Below, one piece after another: positions 1,080 to 51,344 of a stretch of 64,000 bases of DNA; position 1 is the stretch's first letter; each line of letters opens with the position of its first letter. A model generated the notes under the pieces. That model searched no databases and was not told the DNA's origin. It was given only the letters and a program-made list of their open reading frames with translations. A program made the position numbers and the translations under genes. The DNA is from Escherichia phage 4MG, in sequence record NC_022968.1; one strand, given 5' to 3'.

Positions 1080-2053
1080 TGCTGAGTGCAGAAGAAATCC
1101 TTGATTTAAAAGCTAAAGGCCTGAGTAACCGTGAAATTGCTCGTCGTTATCTGGGAAAAGAAAGCAAGGAATCCCACATCCGTCTTATTCTTAAGGCGCA
1201 TGAGTATAACAAGGAAGCTGAGAGAGTGATCAGTGATGTTATTGAGCAGCATCCCGGTGCTAAGATCTTCCTCGGTGACGTAGAAGTATCACCAACACTG
1301 GCTTGGGTCTTTAACCGATTCAAGGCGTTTGTAACACCTTCCCACGTAGAGCATGAACCTTACATGTACACATGGGCTGGTAAGTGGTTACATAACCCTG
1401 CGATCATCAGTCGCAAACTTCCTGACTACGAAACGTTCAAAACAGATATCCACGACGACCGTGAACTGGTTGAAGAACTGTGGCATATTTTGGATGAGTG
1501 TGATATCTTCATCGCACACAACGCTCGCTTCGACAAAGGTTGGGCTAACCAGCGTTTCGCGTTCCACGGAATGAAACCGCCATCTCCGTACATCGTGATC
1601 GATACGCTTGCAGAACTCAAGTCAGCATTCTCCTTGCCTTCTAACGCTCTGGAAGCTGCGTGTAATTACTTCCAACTGGACGCTCGTAAGCGCCACCACG
1701 AAGGTATCACGCTGTGGATTCGTTGTTTCCACGGAGAGATTGAAGCATTCGAAGAAATGGAATACTACAACATCGGGGATATCCCGACACTTGAAGGTAT
1801 CTACTTGAAAGTCCGTCCTTTCATGAAGAAACACCCTAACGTGACCCTGTACAATGATGAAGACGAAAACACGGTCCTGCGCTGTGTCCGTTGTAACTCT
1901 GATCAGGTTGTTGAGATGCCGGGTAAGGTCGGTACTACGTACCTGTCTAAGTTCCAGGCATACCGTTGTGAGTGCTGCGGTTCTGTGATGCGTGACCGCC
2001 GTAACATCCGTACTAAGGAAGAAATGGCTAACACGCTTGTGAATATCATTTAA
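1079..2053 (+). CDS. DEDDh-type 3'-5' exonuclease (DnaQ-like)
   Basis: IFLGDVEVS (Exo I DxE) and IAHNARFDKGW (Exo III HxAxFD) motifs; ATG overlaps upstream stop. Confidence 0.55.
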   Translation: MLSAEEILDLKAKGLSNREIARRYLGKESKESHIRLILKAHEYNKEAERVISDVIEQHPGAKIFLGDVEVSPTLAWVFNRFKAFVTPSHVEHEPYMYTWAGKWLHNPAIISRKLPDYETFKTDIHDDRELVEELWHILDECDIFIAHNARFDKGWANQRFAFHGMKPPSPYIVIDTLAELKSAFSLPSNALEAACNYFQLDARKRHHEGITLWIRCFHGEIEAFEEMEYYNIGDIPTLEGIYLKVRPFMKKHPNVTLYNDEDENTVLRCVRCNSDQVVEMPGKVGTTYLSKFQAYRCECCGSVMRDRRNIRTKEEMANTLVNII

Positions 2054-2084
2054 GGGCTTCGGCCCTTTTGCAAAGGAGAGAAGA

Positions 2085-2690
2085 TTGGATATTATTGTTC
2101 TTAACGCCCCGCCACAAAGCGGTAAAGATGAGATCTCTGCGTATCTGTGCAAAGGTAATCCCAACATCAACCACGAAGAGGTAAAGGAACTCCTGTTTGA
2201 GGTTGCTATTCGTTCAGCGGGGATTTCCCGTGAGTTGTGGGATGCAATGTATACTCGTCGGTATAAAGAGATCCCAAGCCCATATCTGATGATTGATGGT
2301 GTGAATGTATCTCCACGTCAGTGGATGATCCATTGCTCTGAGAAGGTTATCAAGCCGTTGTTTGGTAAGTCTGCATTTGGTAAGGCCGCTGTAGAGCACC
2401 TGAAAAAGACCTATGCGAATGATGAAGTCATTGTGTATTCTGATGGTGGTTTCAGGGAAGAAATCAAAGAGTTATCCGATTACGCATATTCAACTGGTGG
2501 TGAATTCTTCCTTGCACGTATCCACCGAAAAGGTTATGATTGGGGTAATGACAGTCGTAACTGGTTGTACCTTGATGGTATCAGAGGCCACGAACGTGAC
2601 TTTGACAACAAAGAGGGCGGCATGATAGACTGTGCTGAAGAGGTTCTCGAATGGGCGAGAACTATTAGCTACGGAGAAGAGAATGCGTAA
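2085..2690 (+). CDS. P-loop deoxynucleoside monophosphate kinase-like
   Basis: Walker A-like LNAPPQSGKD resembling T4 gp1 dNMP kinase (LSGVKRSGKD); RBS AAAGGAGAG upstream. Confidence 0.5.
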   Translation: MDIIVLNAPPQSGKDEISAYLCKGNPNINHEEVKELLFEVAIRSAGISRELWDAMYTRRYKEIPSPYLMIDGVNVSPRQWMIHCSEKVIKPLFGKSAFGKAAVEHLKKTYANDEVIVYSDGGFREEIKELSDYAYSTGGEFFLARIHRKGYDWGNDSRNWLYLDGIRGHERDFDNKEGGMIDCAEEVLEWARTISYGEENA

Positions 2691-3285
2691 ACCGCTAAAT
2701 ATCGGTATTGATGTTGACCTGACTTTTGTCGATTCAGGGTCCCCTTGGATTCTATGGATGGAACAGGTGTATGGTGTGAGTGCTGACTACAAGCTTCCAC
2801 CACCAAACCCACAAGGGAAACTCTACTACAACGTTTCCAAGTATTTTCCACCTGCAAAGGTAAATCAGGTTCCACCATACGAGTTCTGGGAAGACCCATA
2901 CCTCTATGACAAACTGAAGCCTCTGCCTGGTGCAGTTGAAGCAGTAGCGGCTTGGGCCGAAGCTGGACACTTCAACCAGTTTGTGTCTTACTGTAAGAAA
3001 GGCCACTTCTCGTCTAAGGTGCGATTCCTGAAACGTGAAACGGAAGAGTTTTTCAGTATCGAGCCAGGCTCAGGCCACGGGTTCTATGCAACGAAAAACA
3101 AAGCTGGTATCAAACTCGATGTCATCATTGATGACCGCAACGAGTTCCTGAATCAGTTCGGTCCTGAAGTGATCAAGATTAAGTTCAAGACACCTTACGA
3201 TCAGTCCGAAGAACTTCGTGTCTCGATTGACCTTGAGACCGATAACTGGGACGACATCCGGAAGTTTGTTCTGGACATTGCATAA
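2683..3285 (+). CDS. HAD-superfamily phosphatase, probable 5'-(deoxy)nucleotidase
   Basis: N-terminal IGIDVDLTF = HAD motif I DxDxT; start trimmed to ATG with GGAG RBS, overlapping the kinase stop. Confidence 0.5.
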   Translation: MRKPLNIGIDVDLTFVDSGSPWILWMEQVYGVSADYKLPPPNPQGKLYYNVSKYFPPAKVNQVPPYEFWEDPYLYDKLKPLPGAVEAVAAWAEAGHFNQFVSYCKKGHFSSKVRFLKRETEEFFSIEPGSGHGFYATKNKAGIKLDVIIDDRNEFLNQFGPEVIKIKFKTPYDQSEELRVSIDLETDNWDDIRKFVLDIA

Positions 3286-25034: not shown

Positions 25035-26183
25035 ATGAAAAGCATTAAACTGAGCATTGCACCAACCTACGTAGCCCATTGGTCATGGTGGGAGGGCGTT
25101 CGTGAACTCATTCAGAACGCCATTGACGCTGGTGACCACGAAGTTGTGTTCATTAAGGACACCATTTCAATTGCATCCTACGGTGGTAAGCTGCCTATCC
25201 AATCCCTCCTGATGGGTAAGACCACTAAGGAAGATGATGATACCAAGATCGGTAAGTTTGGCGAGGGGATGAAGGTAGGTTTCCTGTGCCTGTTACGTGA
25301 AGGTGCAGACATTACCATGTACAACGGTCGAGATCTGTGGAAACCAGAGCTTGCGATGGATGATGTGTTCGACGAGAAGGTTCTCTCTGTCAATATCGAG
25401 GAGGGGCGTTTCCCTAATCGCTCTGAGGATTGTGTTACCATCCATATCAAGAATGTTCCTGAACACGCCATACGTGAAATAAAGAACAACTATGCCCCGG
25501 AACGTGCTAATCTTGAGGTGGTGTTTGAAGCAGAGGGCTATGGTAAGGCCTACGCGAAAAAGAACGAGCGTGATTACAAGGATTGCCGTCTATACGTTAA
25601 TGGCCTGTACGTAACCACCGTTGAGGGTAAGTACAAGTTCGATTATGACTTCCCGGCAGACCGATTCACTCTGGATCGTGACCGTAACCAGGCAAGTGAG
25701 TTCGAAGTTCGCTGGAATGCAACCCGTCTTCTGTCACAATCTGACGATGTGCTTATGCTGGCAGACCTGGGTGTTGGTCAGTACGATGACCTTGAGCACT
25801 TCGATAGTCAGAACGAGTCAAGCTATTATGTTCGTGGTTATGAACAGGACACTCTCGAAGAACGGGCGGTATCCATCTTCCGTGAACAAAATGGTTGGAA
25901 GGCATTCCCTATCAATGCCAATTGGTCTGATAGTCGTAAACGATTAGTTACTGAAATGGCGATCAGCCACGGCAAAACTCCGGTGACAGTCAAGAAAGCA
26001 GCCTACCAGATGCTGAAACACGAGTTTTCTGTGCCTGAGGAGATCAACGAAATGGTTGAATTCAAGGCTCTTAGCTACCTTGAGAAATTCCTTGCAAAAC
26101 ACGGTCGAAAACTGTACAGTAAGCCGCGTAAGGACCTGGAAAAAACAATCCATATGCTAAAAGTGGCTAAAGGGGAAGCATGA
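25035..26183 (+). CDS. GHKL-superfamily ATPase (Hsp90/MutL/MORC-like)
   Basis: N-terminal ELIQNAIDAG matches the Bergerat N-box E-x3-N-x2-D-A; GKFGEG matches the G2 box; RBS CAAGGAGAAACC. Confidence 0.5.
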   Translation: MKSIKLSIAPTYVAHWSWWEGVRELIQNAIDAGDHEVVFIKDTISIASYGGKLPIQSLLMGKTTKEDDDTKIGKFGEGMKVGFLCLLREGADITMYNGRDLWKPELAMDDVFDEKVLSVNIEEGRFPNRSEDCVTIHIKNVPEHAIREIKNNYAPERANLEVVFEAEGYGKAYAKKNERDYKDCRLYVNGLYVTTVEGKYKFDYDFPADRFTLDRDRNQASEFEVRWNATRLLSQSDDVLMLADLGVGQYDDLEHFDSQNESSYYVRGYEQDTLEERAVSIFREQNGWKAFPINANWSDSRKRLVTEMAISHGKTPVTVKKAAYQMLKHEFSVPEEINEMVEFKALSYLEKFLAKHGRKLYSKPRKDLEKTIHMLKVAKGEA

Positions 26184-44908: not shown

Positions 44909-45100
44909 ATGGAAAACGGGAAAGTAGTTGCAAGCGAAACAATGGTAACCCTGTACACCTGGGAGAGTGAGCGCGGAGCGCCCCAGGTTAGGATCGTGCC
45001 TTTGCCGTTTGCAGAACGTGCGAGCGTGTCCGGGTTTTACTATGGCACAAAGGCGGTGAGTGAGTCCGGCGCGGTGTTATGGGATAGCAGGGAAGACTAA
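44909..45100 (+). CDS. hypothetical small protein
   Basis: Trimmed to ATG after AGAGAGGTAAACGAA. Confidence 0.4.
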   Translation: MENGKVVASETMVTLYTWESERGAPQVRIVPLPFAERASVSGFYYGTKAVSESGAVLWDSRED

Positions 45101-45120
45101 AAAATCTTTTTGCCTGGGGC

Positions 45121-45149
45121 TTGCAATCCGTGCGGCCCTGGGTTATATT
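45121..45149 (+). promoter_or_regulatory. sigma70-type promoter with no ORF downstream
   Basis: TTGCAA - 17 nt - TATATT, preceded by a second copy of AAAATCTTTTTGCC; no RBS-led ORF follows. Confidence 0.45.
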
Positions 45150-45475
45150 TATCAGACAGAAGAGAAAACGCCACTCCACGGCGAAAAGGCGGGGCTAACG
45201 TACCGGGCGCGGGTGCCAGGTCGGAAGGTGGATCGCCGGTAGTTCGTCTGAATGACATTTGTAAAGATTTGTAAAGATGGTTGATCCTGGGGTTGGTTCT
45301 GCTATTATTATCACATAGCGGGAACATTGAAACCGGAGTACAAAACACCGGGGGTGCCTGTCATTCTGCAAATGATAATGATTATCATTCAACAAGCTAA
45401 ATGAGAATGCTTCTCATTCCGCATAAAAATTTATCTTGACATCGAGTGTGCTTGTGTGAGAAAATTATTGATCCC

Positions 45476-45681
45476 AAAAAATTTTTTCGCGTCTATAGAA
45501 AAAATACGTTTTTGAAACTGAAAAGTCGATCGAGAACCGGGCGCAAAAATTTTTTCGAGAGCGAGAAAAAATACGATCTCGATTTTGAAAAATCGATCGA
45601 GAACCCAATCTCTACCGAGAAAAATTTTTTGAGCAGTATAGAAAAAATACGATCTTGAAAACGAAAAAGTGATCGAGTACC
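45476..45681. repeat. three imperfect tandem direct repeats (~62 bp unit)
   Basis: Units at about 45476, 45545 and 45621 sharing AAAAATTTTTTCG...AGAAAAAATACG...TCGATCGAGAACC. Confidence 0.7.
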
Positions 45682-45907
45682 TGAAGTTTTACTCCCGAAA
45701 TATTGGAGATAAGTTTTGCAGTTTTTTGAGATATTTGTCCAGATGTGACAGTTGTTTTTGCAGTAAATTCATACAGTTACGTGCATGTTTTTGAGATATG
45801 TGGCAGGTTGTTTTCGAGATCTTTATTCACAAAATATTGGATTTACCTGGACACTTCAGCAGAGGCCGTTTCGAAAACCATTTCGATTTTCATTTTGATT
45901 TCTGGTT

Positions 45908-45942
45908 CAAAATATCCAGGCAAATATCAGGTCAAATATCAC
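45908..45942. repeat. short iteron-like repeats
   Basis: CAAAATATCCAGGCAAATATCAGGTCAAATATCAC (AAATATC three times). Confidence 0.5.
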
Positions 45943-45949
45943 ACGGTTT

Positions 45950-46774
45950 TCATTTCGGTTCCTTACCGAAAATATCTCTCCACATACAAATATCATAGCT
46001 CTTGTGGTGCGCCATCTCATACATCTGAATTTCTTCGTCTGTTGGATGCAAGATATCCATGAAAAGATGCTTTATATCTGAGGTGTTAAACGTTGAAGAA
46101 ACCCCGTCTATGGTGGTATGGATAGCCAGTTCACCATATGCCTTTGTCAGGTGGATACGGTCTTTACCATTCATGATGGTTACACGATCATCTTGCACTG
46201 CAATCCAACTATCCACACCGATAACCATATCACTTGGTGTGCTTGCATGGACCAAAAGCTCTATGACCGTGCTGGTTGGGATGATACTGTTCAGGTAATC
46301 CCTTTGCCACTCATTCCATCCACGCTCCTGGAGGCATCTACGCAATACAAAATCGCATCTAAGCTCGTTAGTGGCATCTCCAACGATATAGTTAAACTCA
46401 TCCGAGATCTCGGCTCTGTCCATTTTGTTGTCGAGGGATAAAATATCTTTTGCCATGTTATCAGCACGGCGAGCAACATTAATCAAGCTCCACGTCAAGG
46501 CCTCTATTTGACGTTCAAGCGCCTCAACGTAGGCTTGGTAATCAGCAATCTCAGAACTCTTTGCATAGGACTTAAGTTCTTCAAGCTCCGACGCGACCTT
46601 GCCCTTCTGCTTATCAAAGTCAGTTTCATCATCTGGATCACTTGAAAACTCAAGATATGATAGCTCATGCTCTGTGCTTTCATAGATCTTTTTCAGGTCT
46701 GTCTCGATGTCTGGGACATCAAACTTCTTTTTGTGGTGTGGGACGATCTCTGTTGTGTGAAATACTGTAGTCAT
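45950..46774 (-). CDS. hypothetical protein
   Basis: 274 aa ORF. Confidence 0.5.
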   Translation of the reverse strand: MTTVFHTTEIVPHHKKKFDVPDIETDLKKIYESTEHELSYLEFSSDPDDETDFDKQKGKVASELEELKSYAKSSEIADYQAYVEALERQIEALTWSLINVARRADNMAKDILSLDNKMDRAEISDEFNYIVGDATNELRCDFVLRRCLQERGWNEWQRDYLNSIIPTSTVIELLVHASTPSDMVIGVDSWIAVQDDRVTIMNGKDRIHLTKAYGELAIHTTIDGVSSTFNTSDIKHLFMDILHPTDEEIQMYEMAHHKSYDICMWRDIFGKEPK

Positions 46775-46896: not shown

Positions 46897-47046
46897 TTAC
46901 TGACCGTGCTTCTGACTCATCTGATATTTCATCCAAGCCATGTTCATTTTGTGCTTCACATCGTATGTGATCGGGAGATTACCGAATAGAAAATAGCTCA
47001 GGTCATAAAGCTTCTCCCAAAATTTAAATATCAGTTTCTCTTTCAT
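46897..47046 (-). CDS. hypothetical small protein (49 aa)
   Basis: Below track cutoff; minus-strand AAGGAG RBS. Confidence 0.3.
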   Translation of the reverse strand: MKEKLIFKFWEKLYDLSYFLFGNLPITYDVKHKMNMAWMKYQMSQKHGQ

Positions 47047-47167
47047 CCTCGATCTCCTTCAGTAGTCGTTTTGCTTTCGCAAATATGAATCCTCTAGCTG
47101 AACCTCTTGGAGATGCATCGCACAACTCTTTCAGCATCTCATATAGTTTGGTTTCTTTATCTGTCAT

Positions 47168-47512
47168 TCACCCTCCGTTCTTTTCTATACCAAGGATCAT
47201 CCCCTGGAGTTGTTGTTTCATCGGGATCAATGCTGGGAAGTCGTCTACCCAGACATCCGGAACCCAACCCGCTTTTGCACAAACTGTAGCCTTCTGTACA
47301 CCACCACAGTAGATGATGTCAATGCCAAGTTTCTCAGCCCAGTATTCGATGTCTTCATTGCGATCCGTTTCATGTCGGAAGGTAACGAACTTCACCGACC
47401 AACCAGACCCACGAGAACAAAACAGGTGGACAAACTCAGCCCACCGTTGAGGGTCGAGGGTGAAGGTATCATCGAAGTCAAGCGCTATCCGCTTACTTTC
47501 AAATGGCTTCAC
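47168..47512 (-). CDS. small HAD-like protein
   Basis: IALDFDDTFT contains the DxDxT motif; GTG start. Confidence 0.4.
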   Translation of the reverse strand: MKPFESKRIALDFDDTFTLDPQRWAEFVHLFCSRGSGWSVKFVTFRHETDRNEDIEYWAEKLGIDIIYCGGVQKATVCAKAGWVPDVWVDDFPALIPMKQQLQGMILGIEKNGG

Positions 47513-47847
47513 AGCGCCCCCGGATCTGCATTCTCACAACGATCCCACTTGCCACACTTCTTATCAACGTAGTGCTCAAGGCGACGTTGGACTGTTTCTA
47601 CGATTGCTGGCATGTCATCCTCACGAGGATTAATGCAGTCCTGAAGTTCAAGCAGGAAGGCCAGATCGATTACACAGTTGATAACATCAGCAATCTCACC
47701 GATTGCAGGTTCATCGCAACGCCAAGGGCGATTAAGCGCTCTTGACAGTTCACCAACTTCCTCTACGAGATTCTTAAACACTGAATCAACAGTCCGGGCT
47801 TGCGCCCGAACCGAGGACTGGAGTACGCGTTCAGCGATTCCTGTCAT
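47509..47847 (-). CDS. MazG-like nucleotide pyrophosphohydrolase
   Basis: EEVGELSRAL ... EIADVINCVIDLA matches the MazG fold motif. Confidence 0.5.
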   Translation of the reverse strand: MTGIAERVLQSSVRAQARTVDSVFKNLVEEVGELSRALNRPWRCDEPAIGEIADVINCVIDLAFLLELQDCINPREDDMPAIVETVQRRLEHYVDKKCGKWDRCENADPGAL

Positions 47848-48491
47848 TTAGACTCCTTCTCCTTTGCCTTTTCTGCTTCGGCAGCTTTGGCAGAAGCATC
47901 AAGCTCTTCAGTGTACTTCTTGATTTGAGCATCAAGGTACTTGATCGTGCTATCAGCCAGTTGCTGAGTACGAGGTGACTCAACCACGTTCTGACCTACA
48001 TATGCTGCCAGCATCTTGTACGCAGTCTCTTTCTGAGGCATGAAGTTGGCATACAGAATACCGATGAAGCAAACAATCATGCCAAACACAGCGATCTTAC
48101 GTGGTCCTTTGGTCATATCACGCTTAGGAACAGGTTGTTGTTCTTGTTCACGGCGTGGCGGTGCAGTAACTTCGCCAAGAACTTCAAATCGCAGCCAACC
48201 GGAAGTCTCGCCATTTGGATACCGAACTTTCAAAGTTCCATCGTTATCGACGGTTGTGATTACCAGCACATCCCCAGTCTTTAAATTGATCCAGTCCTTA
48301 GTCAGGACAAGGTTCTGACCGAGATAGAAGCCGTAGCTCTCTTTTTTACCGTCAGTCTCTTCATAACATTTCTGGATAGCATACATGATCACATATGCTG
48401 CGCCAGCGATAAACATCAGGAAACCCCAACCGCTGTAAGTACCGTCAGTGGTGAGTACATCAATTAAGTAAATCAGAAAAGGCCATGACAT
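47844..48491 (-). CDS. membrane protein
   Basis: Multiple hydrophobic segments; Lys/Glu-rich C-terminus. Confidence 0.5.
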   Translation of the reverse strand: MSWPFLIYLIDVLTTDGTYSGWGFLMFIAGAAYVIMYAIQKCYEETDGKKESYGFYLGQNLVLTKDWINLKTGDVLVITTVDNDGTLKVRYPNGETSGWLRFEVLGEVTAPPRREQEQQPVPKRDMTKGPRKIAVFGMIVCFIGILYANFMPQKETAYKMLAAYVGQNVVESPRTQQLADSTIKYLDAQIKKYTEELDASAKAAEAEKAKEKESK

Positions 48492-48748
48492 CAGTTATTC
48501 TCCTCTACGTAAGAAACAGTTGTGGAAGGATCATTTTTACTTCCACCGTAATTTGTGTGGGTGGTTGAGTTAGGGCAGCGAACTACGTACAGAGTTCTCT
48601 GTCCACGCTCAGATGAAGACACCCGGTAAATATGACAATCCCGAAGACCATCTGGTAGTTCATAAATTCCAGTTTTTTCCTCTGAAGGATATGGACCACA
48701 ACCAGATAATATCATCGTAACAGCCAGCAATGCAAGAACTTTTCTCAC
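48491..48748 (-). CDS. lipoprotein
   Basis: Signal peptide MRKVLALLAVTMILSGC with lipobox LSGC. Confidence 0.55.
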   Translation of the reverse strand: MRKVLALLAVTMILSGCGPYPSEEKTGIYELPDGLRDCHIYRVSSSERGQRTLYVVRCPNSTTHTNYGGSKNDPSTTVSYVEENN

Positions 48749-48759
48749 TTAATTTCCCC

Positions 48760-48963
48760 TTACGGAATCTCAGCCTTTCGATTATCAACACACATGACAG
48801 TGGGGATAGGTTTGGTAGAGAAATCCTTGATCTTATCTTTGCCGTTGCAAAACTCAACAGCCCACTTGAATGCCCCTTCATCACGGCTAACGCCAGAAAA
48901 GACCACAGCAAAAACAAACAATGAAAGAAAAATACCAACCATAAAATAGTATGGATTACTCAT
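48760..48963 (-). CDS. small membrane protein
   Basis: Trimmed start; one hydrophobic segment. Confidence 0.4.
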   Translation of the reverse strand: MSNPYYFMVGIFLSLFVFAVVFSGVSRDEGAFKWAVEFCNGKDKIKDFSTKPIPTVMCVDNRKAEIP

Positions 48964-49232
48964 GTTGTTGTCGGCTCCGCGCCGCCCCCAGTTGATTCGT
49001 CGCATTTAGAAGCTCCTGTCGCCCATGCCTCCGAGCACATTGAACTTCCACACACATCTGAAGTGACTCACATCACTTCCTCTTGGAACTAACTATACAC
49101 TAACAAATCTTTAGATCAAGTGTTTTTTATAAAGATCTTATTTTTATTTGTTTATATCTTTATTATTTAGTTCTTTATTATATCGTAGGTCGTTTTTGTC
49201 ACCCCTCCACCTACGTTTTTGGCAGGGGTTGG

Positions 49233-49529: not shown

Positions 49530-49912
49530 GCTGTCTCCAGATAGTCTTTCAGATATTCGATGACGTAGCTACGTGCATAGTTCTCATCAGCATCGTTATG
49601 CCACATTTTAGTGACAACACCAGTCAATTTGTATAGTGAACGTTCAAAATGGTTCATCCCCGGAAGAATACTCACCATAAAATCCTCTTCCTCACTAATT
49701 TCAAGAGGATTAACAGTGAAGTCTGGTTGAACTAGTGTCTCCCAGGCTCCATTTTTGAACCGTTTTAAGGTCAAGGCACGACGATTTGAAGAGGTAAGAT
49801 ACTCAGAGTAGTCATCCCCCTGGTGAAAACCGATCCTGACCATAGCCCCACTGTACATAAAATCAACATCCACAGTGAGGCGCTCTACCTTCAGCCTATT
49901 TTGCGTGTTCAT
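49526..49912 (-). CDS. hypothetical protein
   Basis: ATGA overlap. Confidence 0.45.
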   Translation of the reverse strand: MNTQNRLKVERLTVDVDFMYSGAMVRIGFHQGDDYSEYLTSSNRRALTLKRFKNGAWETLVQPDFTVNPLEISEEEDFMVSILPGMNHFERSLYKLTGVVTKMWHNDADENYARSYVIEYLKDYLETA

Positions 49913-51332
49913 CTAAGTCAACAGCCCTCCCAAATGGTGGGTCGTACTTGGATTTGTTACGTCCACACAGCACCCACAACGTATCCCACTTCTTACCCCA
50001 GTCTTTTTTGCGTGAGGTAAGGTCTTCAATGTACCCATCAGTGAAGATTATCACATCTTTTGCATCAGGGATATTCTTTTCGATGTATTCAAAGGCAACA
50101 CCAGCGCGTGTACCACCTGTGGAAGTCACATTATAGTCCAGCATCTCCTTGATGTTATCCTGTGTGTACACTTTCACTTCCCCAACCATCGTAGACCAGC
50201 AGAAAAGTGTTACCCGGAAGCACTTATACAGGGTGCACAGGCCAATAATCTCATTGAATATCCTGGTCATGGTCTGTCTGCTGATAGAACCCGACACATC
50301 GAAGCATACAACGATGTCGATTGTCTCAGATTGCTTCCTTCCCGGAAGAATAATGCTCTGTTTGTGGGTGATTGCCCCATAATTACGCAGTACCTGGGTC
50401 ACCGAGCCAGACCTACGAGCGGGTTTACGGTACGAAAGGTGCGACCTCACACGAGAAACCATACGTTGTTTAATGATTTTCATGTAGTCAATGTGTGGTT
50501 TCCGCATTCTTGCAATCAATTCCCGCGCTTCTTTCGGCCCTTCACCCCCGGCAGCACTCATTGCAGCATCAATCAGCCCAGCAGACCACGCAAGATTCTC
50601 ATCTTTGGCGATTGGGCCGAGGCTTGGGTGCGGGTCTACATACCCAAGGATGTCACGCTCAGGGTCATAATCCCCGATATGTGTACCCATAGGGTTGCCA
50701 GTAACCGCTTTCCCATTGTAGATCATCTCGTAAATTTCTTCTGCTGTCTTGTTTTGGAATGCAAAATCACAATAGCAGTAGGCAAGGAATCCAAATTCTT
50801 TGTCTTTATTGAACTTAGTTTGCGCCCCCAGAGGGAAGAACTTCAGGGTTTTATTCCTTGGCCCCAAGTCTCCAGCCACCAAATCTGTGTTGATGTACTG
50901 ATCCGCTGCGATATTGTACATCTTGGAGTTGAAGCTTTTACCACGGGCCATATGGTCGTTGGTGATATGGCGTATTTCATGCATGAGAATAACCACCACT
51001 TCTTTTGGTGTTTTCTTGCGATAGAATACGTCTACATACGTCTTGTAATCATCCTTCTGTTGTTGTGTCATTGTTGGATGATTGTCAATACGATCAAACA
51101 CTTTCTTTTTGCGCTCTGCTGGCATACCCATAATGAACTCAGGGTTGTAATACAGATTACGATGGTCTGTTGCAGCCGTTGGCAACCAACGCCAGTCAGC
51201 GATGATCGGTAAAGAACTCAGCAAAGTTCCGTAAAATGGGCGATGTTGCAGCAATGCAATACGTGCTGACTGAATTAGTTTTAGCGCTTCATCTTGAAGC
51301 TTAGAGATCATCTCAGATTCATCTTTGTACAC
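49896..51332 (-). CDS. metallopeptidase-like / von Willebrand factor A domain protein (DUF2201-like architecture)
   Basis: HEIRH (HExxH) in N-terminal half; DVSGSI (MIDAS DxSxS) in C-terminal half; start set at GTG with GGAG RBS. Confidence 0.55.
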   Translation of the reverse strand: MYKDESEMISKLQDEALKLIQSARIALLQHRPFYGTLLSSLPIIADWRWLPTAATDHRNLYYNPEFIMGMPAERKKKVFDRIDNHPTMTQQQKDDYKTYVDVFYRKKTPKEVVVILMHEIRHITNDHMARGKSFNSKMYNIAADQYINTDLVAGDLGPRNKTLKFFPLGAQTKFNKDKEFGFLAYCYCDFAFQNKTAEEIYEMIYNGKAVTGNPMGTHIGDYDPERDILGYVDPHPSLGPIAKDENLAWSAGLIDAAMSAAGGEGPKEARELIARMRKPHIDYMKIIKQRMVSRVRSHLSYRKPARRSGSVTQVLRNYGAITHKQSIILPGRKQSETIDIVVCFDVSGSISRQTMTRIFNEIIGLCTLYKCFRVTLFCWSTMVGEVKVYTQDNIKEMLDYNVTSTGGTRAGVAFEYIEKNIPDAKDVIIFTDGYIEDLTSRKKDWGKKWDTLWVLCGRNKSKYDPPFGRAVDLDEHAK

Positions 51333-51344
51333 AGTTATCTCCAA

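Follow-up and report, generated by a model that had tools for sequence, protein, structure and literature searches.

Escherichia phage 4MG, a Seunavirus-like (Vequintavirinae) myophage, encodes a 114-residue protein that, judged by its conserved residues and a structural model, is well supported as a complete, capless, four-stranded minimal member of the HAD superfamily with all four HAD motifs. It is encoded together with a 112-residue protein that, at the family level and from its sequence, is well supported as a single-domain NTP pyrophosphohydrolase of the all-alpha MazG type. We refer to the two as the mini-HAD and the MazG-like protein, and to the whole stretch of 64,000 nucleotides analysed here (from sequence record NC_022968.1) as the window. 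A functional coupling of the two proteins is plausible.

The original prediction had placed two overlapping ORFs at this locus, and both are present on the minus strand with a shared stretch of 4 nt (Table 1). By their sequences they are real genes and not chance ORFs, because they match PHROG families and dozens of phage genomes carry close homologues. Their GTGA overlap probably leads to translational coupling, and an overlap of the same type joins the two genes in the related loci L004, L005, L007, L008, L010, L011 and L068. In the window the pair is surrounded by genes for a membrane protein and a lipoprotein and by small ORFs; a small ORF begins immediately past the stop codon of the mini-HAD (TGAATG). 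Scans of the region from 44 to 50 kb for promoters and terminators, tandem repeats and Rfam families gave nothing above background, and the whole window, scanned for tRNA genes, had none.

Table 1. Positions in the window of the two genes, their predicted functional motifs and the adjoining upstream gene
Feature	Position	Strand	Basis or remark
Predicted membrane protein, 215 aa, conserved, directly upstream of the MazG-like gene	47844-48491	-	phrog_12750, 1.2e-122
MazG-like gene, 112 aa, predicted single-domain all-alpha NTP pyrophosphohydrolase	47509-47847	-	ORF, phrog_1247, PDB profile matches
MazG motif 1, LVEEVGELSRAL, E29-E30-V-G-E33 (EExxE), predicted metal-binding	47749-47763	-	read from sequence
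MazG motif 2, EIADVINCVIDLA, E51-I-A-D54 (ExxD), predicted metal-binding	47686-47697	-	read from sequence
GTGA, 4-nt overlap; GTG is the mini-HAD start, TGA the MazG-like stop	47509-47512	-	read from sequence
Mini-HAD gene, 114 aa, GTG start, predicted minimal capless HAD-superfamily phosphatase	47168-47512	-	
HAD motif I, D12-F-D14-D15-T16, predicted nucleophile Asp and Asp+2 acid/base, end of strand 1	47465-47479	-	read from sequence
HAD motif II, T44-F-R46 (T-x-R), end of strand 2	47375-47383	-	T44/R46 invariant; model strand 38-44
HAD motif III, K74, N-terminus of helix 3	47291-47293	-	invariant; model helix 74-80
HAD motif IV, D90-D91, predicted Mg2+ ligands, end of strand 4	47240-47245	-	invariant; model strand 87-89

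The MazG-like protein matched phrog_1247 ('MazG-like pyrophosphatase') at 3.8e-34. With the Pfam model MazG (PF03819) it scored 19.5 bits, under the gathering cut-off of 22, and all 32 of the 32 family members matched this model at E <= 1, the best E-value being 7.8e-5. When the family profile was compared with the PDB, the MazG-type structures 1vmg (E 0.0026), 2gta, 2q73, 5ie9 and 7ody were found. The carboxylates E29, E30, E33, E51 and D54 are invariant among the 32 homologues, and the 17 residues between E33 and E51 fit the motif pair EExxE(12-28)ExxD, which bears out the MazG motif and identity claimed earlier. With EExxE(17)ExxD the protein has the motif pair of the MazG family, to which iMazG (2q73), YpjD (2gta), SSO (1vmg) and MazZ (7ody) belong, and the size is that of single-domain members. 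It differs in staying below the Pfam threshold and in features peculiar to its own family, namely an RPWRCDEP loop, three near-invariant cysteines and a C-terminal KKCxKWD. The MazG-like gene by itself is routine, since relatives in GAP31, PVP-SE1 and other phages already carry this annotation; of the two, the mini-HAD holds the greater interest.

The mini-HAD starts with MKPFESKRIALDFDDT; its residues 9-16 read IALDFDDT and strand 1 of the model covers residues 7-12. The length of 114 aa and the DFDDT of motif I had been reported in the original prediction, and both were confirmed. Motifs II to IV, which had been left for checking, are retained with T44, K74 and D90-D91. In an alignment of 31 diverse family sequences with 26-93% identity, D12, D14, D15, T16, T44, R46, K74, W88, D90, D91 and P93 were invariant. 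The AlphaFold (AF2) model has a pLDDT of 85.7, with values above 90 in the core, and shows a Rossmannoid alpha/beta core resembling solved HAD structures, in which motifs I, II and IV fall where strands 1, 2 and 4 end and motif III where helix 3 begins. Four strands are predicted, and a fifth strand, a cap and a flap hairpin are missing. A helical turn of three residues at 17-19 is compatible with a squiggle, and no hairpin lies ahead of the helix 21-31.

In the searches, the mini-HAD matched the HAD-like family phrog_4919 at 1.9e-53. The HMM assignment that had been foreseen thus holds for both proteins at the level of the PHROG families, whereas Pfam MazG remained below threshold and the Pfam HAD models gave nothing: 11 mini-HAD members had no match at E <= 10 to Hydrolase, HAD_2, HAD_PNKP, Acid_phosphat_B or NT5C. 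Their sole Pfam match was to DUF6679 and was sub-threshold (17.2 vs 23.9 bits). Searches with the single sequence found nothing in NCBIfam or, by phmmer, in the PDB, the profile of the 11 sequences retrieved no relative from the PDB, and PADLOC had no matches at the locus. At the profile level there was a weak full-length match (E 0.21) to the small HAD protein 2obb, with the motifs in register; this protein, BT_0820, is a bacterial structural-genomics HAD of 142 aa. The class B/C acid phosphatases (AphA and e(P4)-type, 'DDDD'; 2b82, 2i33) matched at E 0.36-2.2. They are capped, secreted or periplasmic enzymes of 210-250 aa, and in the weak match to AphA motif II was aligned with 'FVTGR', so that a TGR stands against the T-F-R of the mini-HAD. 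Alignment of the family to a single phage HAD_PNKP sequence by hhalign covered the motif II region only, with a probability of 1.4%.

The mini-HAD family is large, with about 2,000 clusters at 50% identity. Homologues were found in 342 records of isolated phages, including rV5 and BASEL Bas86-90; 197 of these records are from Escherichia phages (rV5-like and G7C-like), and the members span rV5-like, G7C-like, Pakpuna-like and aquatic T4-like phages. The members are 88-140 aa long, which is below the size of every HAD enzyme known to us; the smallest characterised ones have, to our knowledge, roughly 140-160 aa. Longer members are mostly tandem duplications or have unannotated tails. In the tandem duplicates P0166 and P0187 the second half is a degenerate copy, and degeneracy was seen only there. 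A protein of 1771 aa (P0167) was rejected as a false positive caused by an 'ALDFGDVY' repeat.

The linkage of the two genes is conserved within a limited group of phages. Genomes of the Seunavirus-, Mydo- and Erwinia-phage-like types keep the genes in the sequence membrane protein, MazG, mini-HAD, even where MazG identity has dropped to 54%. The adjacency is confined to one phage subfamily and has exceptions there: MazG is replaced in L009 and absent in L012, and in GAP31-like phages a gene of 67 aa lies between the two. The MazG-like gene was found in 309 phage records, mostly of T4-like phages of Klebsiella and Aeromonas, where it adjoins an FmdB-like gene. It is usually apart from the mini-HAD, and co-occurrence of the two is practically limited to Seunavirus-type phages and their relatives. 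The mini-HAD homologue gp021 of rV5 has no MazG neighbour and sits behind an annotated sigma-70 early promoter, and no mini-HAD is near the distant MazG relatives L071-L074. Among 15 lineages of distant mini-HADs, defined as clusters at 70% identity in a sample of viral contigs, other all-alpha NTP-PPase families adjoin the mini-HAD in four, as a raw count. MazG (PF03819) and a MazZ-type gene (PF18909) lie directly upstream in L049, PF18909 is a neighbour in L043 and L026, and PRA-PH (PF01503) in L038 and L039. Other mini-HADs have metallophosphoesterase genes or RNA-repair genes nearby, the latter being a T4 Rnl1-type ligase in L014 and HAD_PNKP in L040. The long-contig neighbourhoods of two distant family members, P0044 and P0102, contain ThyX, ferritin and RNaseH-like genes and no NTP-PPase.

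We tentatively propose, at a little under an even chance, that the MazG-like protein and the mini-HAD are two small nucleotide-active hydrolases of the early region that work in series and convert an NTP to the NMP and further to the nucleoside. The 4-nt overlap, the conserved gene order, the NTP-PPase neighbours of distant mini-HADs, the early promoter before gp021 of rV5 and the precedents described below speak for this proposal; the mostly separate occurrence of the two genes, the exceptions within the syntenic clade and the RNA-repair neighbours of some mini-HADs speak against it. The carboxylates of EExxE and ExxD in the MazG-like protein would bind Mg2+, and the alpha-beta bond of a (d)NTP or of a hyperphosphorylated nucleotide would be cleaved to the monophosphate and PPi. 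The mini-HAD would then act as a Mg2+-dependent phosphomonoesterase reduced to the bare catalytic core. D12 is expected to form the aspartyl-phosphate intermediate and D14 to serve as the general acid/base, while T44, R46 and K74 would grip the phosphate and D90 and D91 would ligate Mg2+. The overall reaction would be (d)NTP to (d)NMP and PPi, followed by nucleoside and Pi, and the target nucleotide would be lost irreversibly and not be re-phosphorylated. Since the mini-HAD has no cap, its substrate would probably be selected by self-association or by a partner, possibly the MazG-like protein; the tandem-duplicated members fit self-association. Likely purposes are the sanitising or reshaping of the nucleotide pool during infection, or the destruction of nucleotide immune signals or their precursors. 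Disposal of canonical nucleotides would bring the phage no obvious gain, and the substrate should therefore be special. The disposal of non-canonical or signalling nucleotides, which the original prediction had suggested, appears reasonable by analogy to recent precedents. Cyclic nucleotides are phosphodiesters and, as far as we know, would not be expected as substrates for either the MazG or the HAD class.

The main rival explanation is that the adjacency reflects nothing but inherited synteny and that the mini-HAD works on its own, independently of the MazG-like protein, as a 3'-phosphatase like that of T4 Pnkp. Its targets would be broken RNA or DNA ends, which it would help to heal (e.g. 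after attack by a host anticodon nuclease or another nuclease), or 3'-nucleotides. We regard both the activity and these targets as doubtful, with a real minority chance of being right. Motif II of T4 Pnkp is SGR, which the T-x-R of the mini-HAD resembles, and capless HADs reportedly tend to act on macromolecules. Rare fusions to nucleic-acid-binding domains (RNA_pol_A_CTD in P0254, HTH_31 in P0292) and the name 'polynucleotide kinase' given to homologues by some annotation pipelines point in the same direction, as do the RNA ligase of L014, which lies two genes upstream, and the different phyletic distributions of the two genes. However, no kinase or ligase partner stands beside the mini-HAD in the window or in rV5, and at four loci a true HAD_PNKP gene stands one or two genes from the mini-HAD, so that another 3'-phosphatase would be superfluous there. 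The recurrence of NTP-PPase genes near mini-HADs also argues against a stand-alone repair enzyme. The 3'-phosphatase domain of T4 Pnkp (HAD_PNKP, PF25109; 1ltq, 5uj0) spans about 140 aa within a fusion protein that also contains a kinase, and separate HAD_PNKP genes co-occur with the mini-HAD in some phages. The PF25109 model did not match the mini-HAD and the window has no adjoining kinase or ligase; membership in the T4 Pnkp family by sequence or context was rejected. A non-enzymatic role, in which the mini-HAD would be a truncated remnant serving as a nucleotide or phosphate binder, a regulator or an inhibitor, is suggested by the structural elements missing from the model and by a family size below that of the known HAD enzymes. 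We give it very little credence, since all catalytic residues are invariant in the 31 sequences even down to 26% identity, a pattern expected for an active enzyme under purifying selection. The number of clusters and the confinement of degenerate copies to the second half of tandem duplicates speak for activity as well.

Two further alternatives keep the mini-HAD active on small molecules. As an alarmone module, the MazG-like protein would cut (p)ppGpp or (p)ppApp and the mini-HAD would strip the leftover 3'- or 5'-phosphate (e.g. of pGp), blocking abortive infection by the stringent response. The precedent is Atd1 of the Vequintavirinae phage PcCB7V, a MazG-like (p)ppGpp hydrolase that was reported to leave rNTPs uncleaved and to protect against TIR effectors (Ho et al., 10.1101/2022.06.09.495361). 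Like the MazG-like protein of the window, Atd1 is a small MazG-superfamily enzyme of a Vequintavirinae phage, and it serves that phage as an anti-defence factor; a location in the early region would suit such a module, and a 3'(5')-nucleotidase would agree with the likeness of the mini-HAD to Pnkp and the class B/C acid phosphatases. We nevertheless consider the module decidedly unlikely. The atd1 gene is most likely the 86-aa PRA-PH-type gene two genes from a nucleotidyltransferase in PcCB7V, and its product gave no BLASTP alignment to the MazG-like protein, so that orthology was rejected. No orthologue of either of the two genes turned up in the 96-146 kb third of PcCB7V, and, according to PMC12846349, which cites Rihtman 2019, a cyanophage MazG was inactive on (p)ppGpp. 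The mini-HAD could also attack a phosphoanhydride, either the gamma-phosphate of a dNTP or the PPi released by MazG, and so act in parallel to or upstream of the MazG-like protein. HAD-family inorganic pyrophosphatases exist, BT2127 being one, and the HAD of PUA-Cal-HAD converts dNTPs to dNDPs, with rare variants pairing this HAD with MazG. Nevertheless, the signature of DxDDT, T-x-R and DD is of the monoesterase type seen in AphA, Pnkp and T5 Dmp, the window has no PUA or calcineurin-CE partner and PADLOC was empty, and we find this reading very unlikely.

The two-step disposal proposed above has parallels in systems that act on nucleotide pools. The HAD protein Dmp of T5 is a dNMP phosphatase whose removal of dNMPs has been demonstrated and counters the Kongming defence (10.1101/2024.12.20.629578). 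Dmp and, by prediction, the mini-HAD are phage-encoded, early-expressed HAD phosphatases, and they have in common DxDxT, T-x-R ('CTAR' in Dmp, 'VTFR' or 'VTAR' in mini-HADs) and hhIDD. However, Dmp is longer (244 aa), carrying between motifs I and II a long insertion absent from the mini-HAD, its gene is not paired with a MazG gene, and comparison of the mini-HAD with the single Dmp sequence by HMM and hhalign found no similarity. In bacteria, the PUA-Cal-HAD system has MazG-HAD variants, and MazG-HAD or Calcineurin-HAD cascades deplete dNTPs (10.64898/2026.01.15.699771). The PUA-Calcineurin-CE-HAD and PUA-MazG-HAD modules likewise combine a HAD phosphatase with a MazG or calcineurin phosphoesterase for a two-enzyme degradation of nucleotides. 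These modules are host defences with a PUA sensor and filament assembly, whereas the pair of the window belongs to a lytic phage; with no PUA-like sensor among the neighbours and no PADLOC match, it was rejected as a module of this kind.

Recent work has brought out nucleotide pools and modified nucleotides as signals or targets of bacterial immunity (Kongming/dITP, PUA-Cal-HAD/m6-dAMP, dNTP depletion, viperins). A common phage protein predicted to be a nucleotidase, and sometimes paired with an NTP pyrophosphohydrolase, is a credible new counter-defence candidate. The stronger claim that the pair erases nucleotide-derived immune signals, toxins or their precursors, and that mini-HADs are a general class of anti-defence nucleotidases, seems unlikely to us as it stands. 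Targets of such a pair may include dITP, dIMP and dAMP (Kongming), m6-dAMP (the trigger of PUA-Cal-HAD), viperin-made ddhNTPs and (p)ppGpp. The mini-HADs retain all four motifs within about 90-115 residues, on a core predicted to have four strands, and if the counter-defence reading were true, no smaller functional HAD enzymes would be known. This very large phage family is without a Pfam model or an assigned function, and because model phages that are easy to work with (rV5, BASEL Bas86-90, PVP-SE1) carry members, the function is directly testable.

The gene upstream, for a predicted membrane protein of 215 residues, is counted here as syntenic context and not as a component of the pair. It overlaps the MazG-like gene in an ATGA (47844-47847), and it precedes either MazG or the mini-HAD in 12 of the 12 related loci, one of them being L012, which lacks MazG.

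The original prediction held that a gene for a MazG-like pyrophosphohydrolase overlaps a gene for a minimal HAD-like protein, here called mini-HAD, and this was confirmed overall by the motifs, the coordinates and the PHROG matches. Both ORFs are, on sequence grounds, conserved genes (phrog_1247 at 3.8e-34 for the MazG-like protein and phrog_4919 at 1.9e-53 for the mini-HAD). HAD motif I (DFDDT) was found in the mini-HAD product when the codons were checked. Whether motifs II-IV are retained had been raised as a check; all of them are, and they are invariant in an alignment of 31 diverse members (26-93% identical) from 48 viral-contig loci. The invariant residues are A10, L11, D12, F13, D14, D15 and T16 in motif I, T44 and R46 in motif II, K74 in motif III and W88, D90, D91 and P93 in motif IV.

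The AlphaFold2 model from this alignment (pLDDT 85.7, core 90-98) has a strand at residues 7-12, a short turn at 17-19, a helix at 21-31, a strand at 38-44, a helix at 53-62, a strand at 65-68, a helix at 74-80, a strand at 87-89 and a low-confidence C-terminal helix. Given these positions, each motif sits at its expected HAD place, at the ends of strands 1, 2 and 4 and at the beginning of the helix that precedes strand 4. The model has no cap insert, no flap hairpin and no fifth strand, and many relatives end 10-15 residues past the DD motif. Judged from sequence and model, the minimal HAD of 114 residues is genuinely complete and not a fragment. The predicted fold resembles P-type ATPase phosphorylation domains, the Nir2 LNS2 domain, 2pr7, phosphoserine phosphatase, class C acid phosphatase 2i33, T4 Pnkp (1ltq, 5uj0) and Pnkp1 (4xrp). 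The small HAD BT_0820 (2obb) gave a weak full-length profile alignment (E 0.21) with DFDGT, S-V-R and IDD in register, and the profile aligned the FVTGR segment of class B acid phosphatase AphA. Among curated models, Pfam gave only a sub-threshold DUF6679 match, and NCBIfam and PADLOC gave none. Since no curated model matched, but the predicted fold and all catalytic motifs are present, the HAD domain call is right at the superfamily level, and the protein belongs to no described HAD family. We conclude that the mini-HAD represents a known superfamily in a new and very small form.

The MazG domain call was likewise right, and the proposed motif EEVGE was read, together with EIAD, from the checked codons of the second gene. 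Its product scores 19.5 with the Pfam MazG model, just under the threshold of 22; all 32 collected homologues (42-96% identity) match that model. The acidic residues E29, E30, E33, E51 and D54 are invariant among the 32, with 17 residues between the metal-binding motifs EExxE and ExxD, and the family profile matches the solved MazG-type proteins 1vmg (E 0.0026), YpjD (2gta), integron MazG (2q73/2q5z), 5ie9 and MazZ (7ody). As far as annotation goes, the MazG half was known before; in RefSeq and by several submitters, orthologues are labelled 'MazG-like pyrophosphatase' or 'nucleoside triphosphate pyrophosphohydrolase'. N57, D61, K97, K100 and W101 are family-specific invariants. C44, C58 and C98 (contexts RCDEP, NC and KKC) are nearly invariant and could form a metal or disulphide site; to our knowledge, three such cysteines are not typical of MazG domains.

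The window belongs to a Seunavirus-type myophage (Vequintavirinae). Over 1.8 kb at the locus, the DNA identity was 86.6% to E. coli phage vB_EcoM_LNA4, 82% to Cronobacter phage GAP31 and 79% to Salmonella phage PVP-SE1. The two proteins are 98-99% identical to their LNA4 counterparts and share 99-100% identity with the pair of IMG/VR contig UViG_2595698946_000001. Their genes belong to a densely packed series of small genes that encodes, in order, an 81-aa protein of the 'Rz-like spanin' type, an 85-aa lipoprotein, a 215-aa membrane protein, the MazG-like protein, the mini-HAD, 47-aa and 49-aa ORFs and a 274-aa protein. The junctions read ATGA, GTGA and TGAATG, which suggests a single transcription unit with translational coupling. 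The 49-aa ORF ('...FWEKLYDLSYFLFGNLPITYDVKHKMNMAWMKYQMSQKHGQ') is probably a real gene because it is kept in all 12 related loci; the 47-aa ORF had no match in PHROG or Pfam. The 81-aa protein matches phrog_6073 ('Rz-like spanin'), and the 85-aa protein, with a lipobox-like LSGC, weakly matches Cor superinfection-exclusion proteins (phrog_1119, 5.9e-4). These two could be a spanin pair or exclusion proteins.

Positions of the features discussed (window coordinates unless a locus is named)
Feature	Position	Strand	Remark
Mini-HAD gene	47168-47512	-	114 aa
HAD motif I	47465-47479	-	DFDDT
MazG-like gene	47509-47847	-	112 aa
MazG motif	47749-47763	-	EEVGE
Second acidic motif	47686-47697	-	EIAD
MazG-like/mini-HAD overlap	47509-47512	-	
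Predicted membrane protein	47844-48491	-	215 aa, phrog_12750
Lipoprotein	48491-48748	-	85 aa
Rz-like spanin type	48760-49005	-	81 aa
Two tiny ORFs directly downstream of mini-HAD	46897-47046; 47024-47167	-	
Interval with no long minus-strand (coding-strand) ORF	45100-45950		about 850 bp
482-aa ORF	49896-51344	-	
L049, MazG	2025-2348		PF03819, Pfam-positive
L049, MazZ-type dGTP_diPhyd_N	2348-2764		PF18909
L049, mini-HAD	2767-3123		abutting
L040, stand-alone HAD_PNKP	2211-2753		
PcCB7V HAD-like gene (L077)	25204-25815	-	record 121303-121914

Gene order speaks for a functional link: the series membrane protein, MazG, mini-HAD recurs in Seunavirus-, Mydo-, Klebsiella- and Erwinia-phage-like genomes whose MazG identity falls as low as 54%, and usually the stop and start codons overlap. 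The membrane protein gene, whose sole other matches are weak, sub-threshold and SH3-like, always directly precedes the MazG-like and mini-HAD genes in relatives and stays with the mini-HAD even in locus L012, where MazG is absent. More tellingly, distant mini-HADs are flanked by non-orthologous genes of the all-alpha NTP-PPase superfamily in 4 of 15 lineages (70% identity level, sampled loci), an enrichment that we take as no more than suggestive. The clearest example of a 'nucleotide-hydrolase cluster' was the trio of L049, a metagenomic phage contig, where an RNase H/exonuclease-like gene lies upstream of a classical MazG, a MazZ-type gene and a mini-HAD, and a ribonucleotide reductase gene is close by. 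A dGTP_diPhyd_N gene adjoins the mini-HAD in L043 and L026, and a PRA-PH gene lies three genes away in L038 and L039. In a Rhizobium phage a DUF3310 gene overlaps the mini-HAD start, and calcineurin-type metallophosphoesterases recur near mini-HADs. Against such a link, an unrelated 85-aa ORF takes the place of MazG in locus L009, L012 has no MazG, and in GAP31-like phages a 67-aa gene separates the two. No MazG neighbour was found beside rV5 gp021, and no mini-HAD near four distant MazG relatives (L071-L074). Many T4-like phages of Klebsiella, Enterobacter and Aeromonas have a member of the MazG-like family (about 36-40% identity), which adjoins an FmdB-like gene and not a HAD, and apart from the Seunavirus group hardly any species appears on the lists of both families. 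We regard a functional pairing as no more than plausible.

Sequence and model show a metal site of the MazG type and the complete catalytic set of a HAD. By analogy, the MazG-like enzyme would convert NTP to NMP and PPi; in the mini-HAD, D12 would be the nucleophile and D14 the acid/base, T44, R46 and K74 would bind phosphate, and D90 and D91 Mg2+. Such chemistry is established for the two superfamilies. T-x-R as motif II and DD as motif IV are the forms of T4 Pnkp, AphA and the T5 phosphatase Dmp (CTAR and MIDD in the Dmp translation), which all act on nucleotide or polynucleotide phosphomonoesters. The gene context suggests that both enzymes act in series and would degrade a nucleotide irreversibly, from the triphosphate down to the nucleoside. 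Without a cap, a HAD normally relies on a macromolecular substrate, an oligomer or a partner to close its active site, so self-dimerisation or docking on the MazG-like protein would be expected. Several members are tandem duplications (e.g. P0164 and P0288), sometimes with one degenerate copy, which suggests a dimer as the working unit.

Some contexts of the mini-HAD point away from the MazG link. Stand-alone HAD_PNKP genes (the phosphatase domain of T4 Pnkp) that lack the kinase domain occur in L040 and three similar loci, one or two genes upstream of the mini-HAD and next to ThyX, in aquatic T4-like phage contigs; in L040, ThyX is followed by HAD_PNKP and this, within about 250 nt, by the mini-HAD. 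In L014, an RNA ligase of the T4 Rnl1 type lies two genes upstream, and ribonucleotide reductase is found in the context of L049 and the Rhizobium phage. The strongest rival to the series reading has the mini-HAD act on its own as a 3'-phosphatase, on nucleic-acid ends or on 3'-nucleotides. The RNA-ligase neighbour, the likeness to Pnkp, the capless design and occasional DNA-binding fusions (N-terminal HhH (RNA_pol_A_CTD) or HTH domains on two members) argue for it; we consider it rather unlikely. An activity directed at a phosphoanhydride is improbable. Least likely, at a very small chance, is a non-catalytic remnant, since every catalytic residue is absolutely conserved across the aligned family.

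Three reports make the nucleotide cascade concrete. T5 Dmp shields T5 from Kongming: it removes dAMP, from which the dITP signal is made (10.1101/2024.12.20.629578). PUA-Calcineurin-HAD defence depletes dNTPs by a cascade of HAD and phosphoesterase, and rare variants keep the HAD and have a MazG-like enzyme in place of calcineurin (10.64898/2026.01.15.699771). Atd1, a MazG-like protein of Vequintavirinae, hydrolyses ppGpp and blunts TIR-dependent abortive infection (10.1101/2022.06.09.495361). Its gene in Pectobacterium phage PcCB7V is probably the 86-aa PRA-PH-type gene beside a nucleotidyltransferase, to which the window's MazG-like protein shows no BLASTP similarity; orthology with Atd1 was thus rejected. 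An alarmone-specific version of the cascade seems to us a slim prospect, though less so than the phosphoanhydride reading. The finding is of moderate interest, and of more if a counter-defence role is true.

An exhaustive profile search gave 1,996 representatives of 50%-identity mini-HAD clusters (1,547 at E < 1e-10), almost all stand-alone proteins of 88-140 aa. P0167 (1771 aa), a large repetitive secreted-type protein with 13 profile matches via its ALDFGDVY repeat, is a false positive and should be excluded from any census. With a word-indexed search, the count was 1,057 clusters at 90% identity; 120 of them were listed, all without a Pfam domain and nearly all as 'hypothetical protein'. 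Mini-HADs are carried by 342 isolated-phage records, among them those of rV5 (gp021), further Vequintavirus phages, G7C/N4-like coliphages (NJ01, Bas86-Bas90), Salmonella phage 7-11, Proteus Privateer, phiPsa374-like, Rhizobium and Vibrio phages, and a BFVD fold search matched Pakpuna-like Pseudomonas phages. Annotators occasionally wrote 'HAD-like domain protein', 'class B acid phosphatase' or 'polynucleotide kinase', and we found no functional study of the family in the literature. The mini-HADs form a large uncharacterised phage family that is easily tested in model phages.

PcCB7V encodes a different HAD-like protein of about 200 aa, annotated as hypothetical (ILVDVDLTF..., ...IIDDRNQF), between thymidylate synthase and a gene annotated as 'dephospho-CoA kinase'; it may be a deoxyribonucleotidase-type HAD of another Vequintavirinae phage. 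In the window, the interval that separates the 274-aa gene from the conserved gene that comes next holds nothing but short imperfect repeats and had no Rfam or tRNA match. Translated, the 482-aa ORF contains ILMHEIRHITNDH, with a zinc-peptidase-like HExxH motif, and the C-terminal CFDVSGSIS, whose DxSxS resembles the von Willebrand A MIDAS motif. It is called 'HNH endonuclease' in phrog_1314 and in related GenBank entries, apparently a mis-annotation that has spread.
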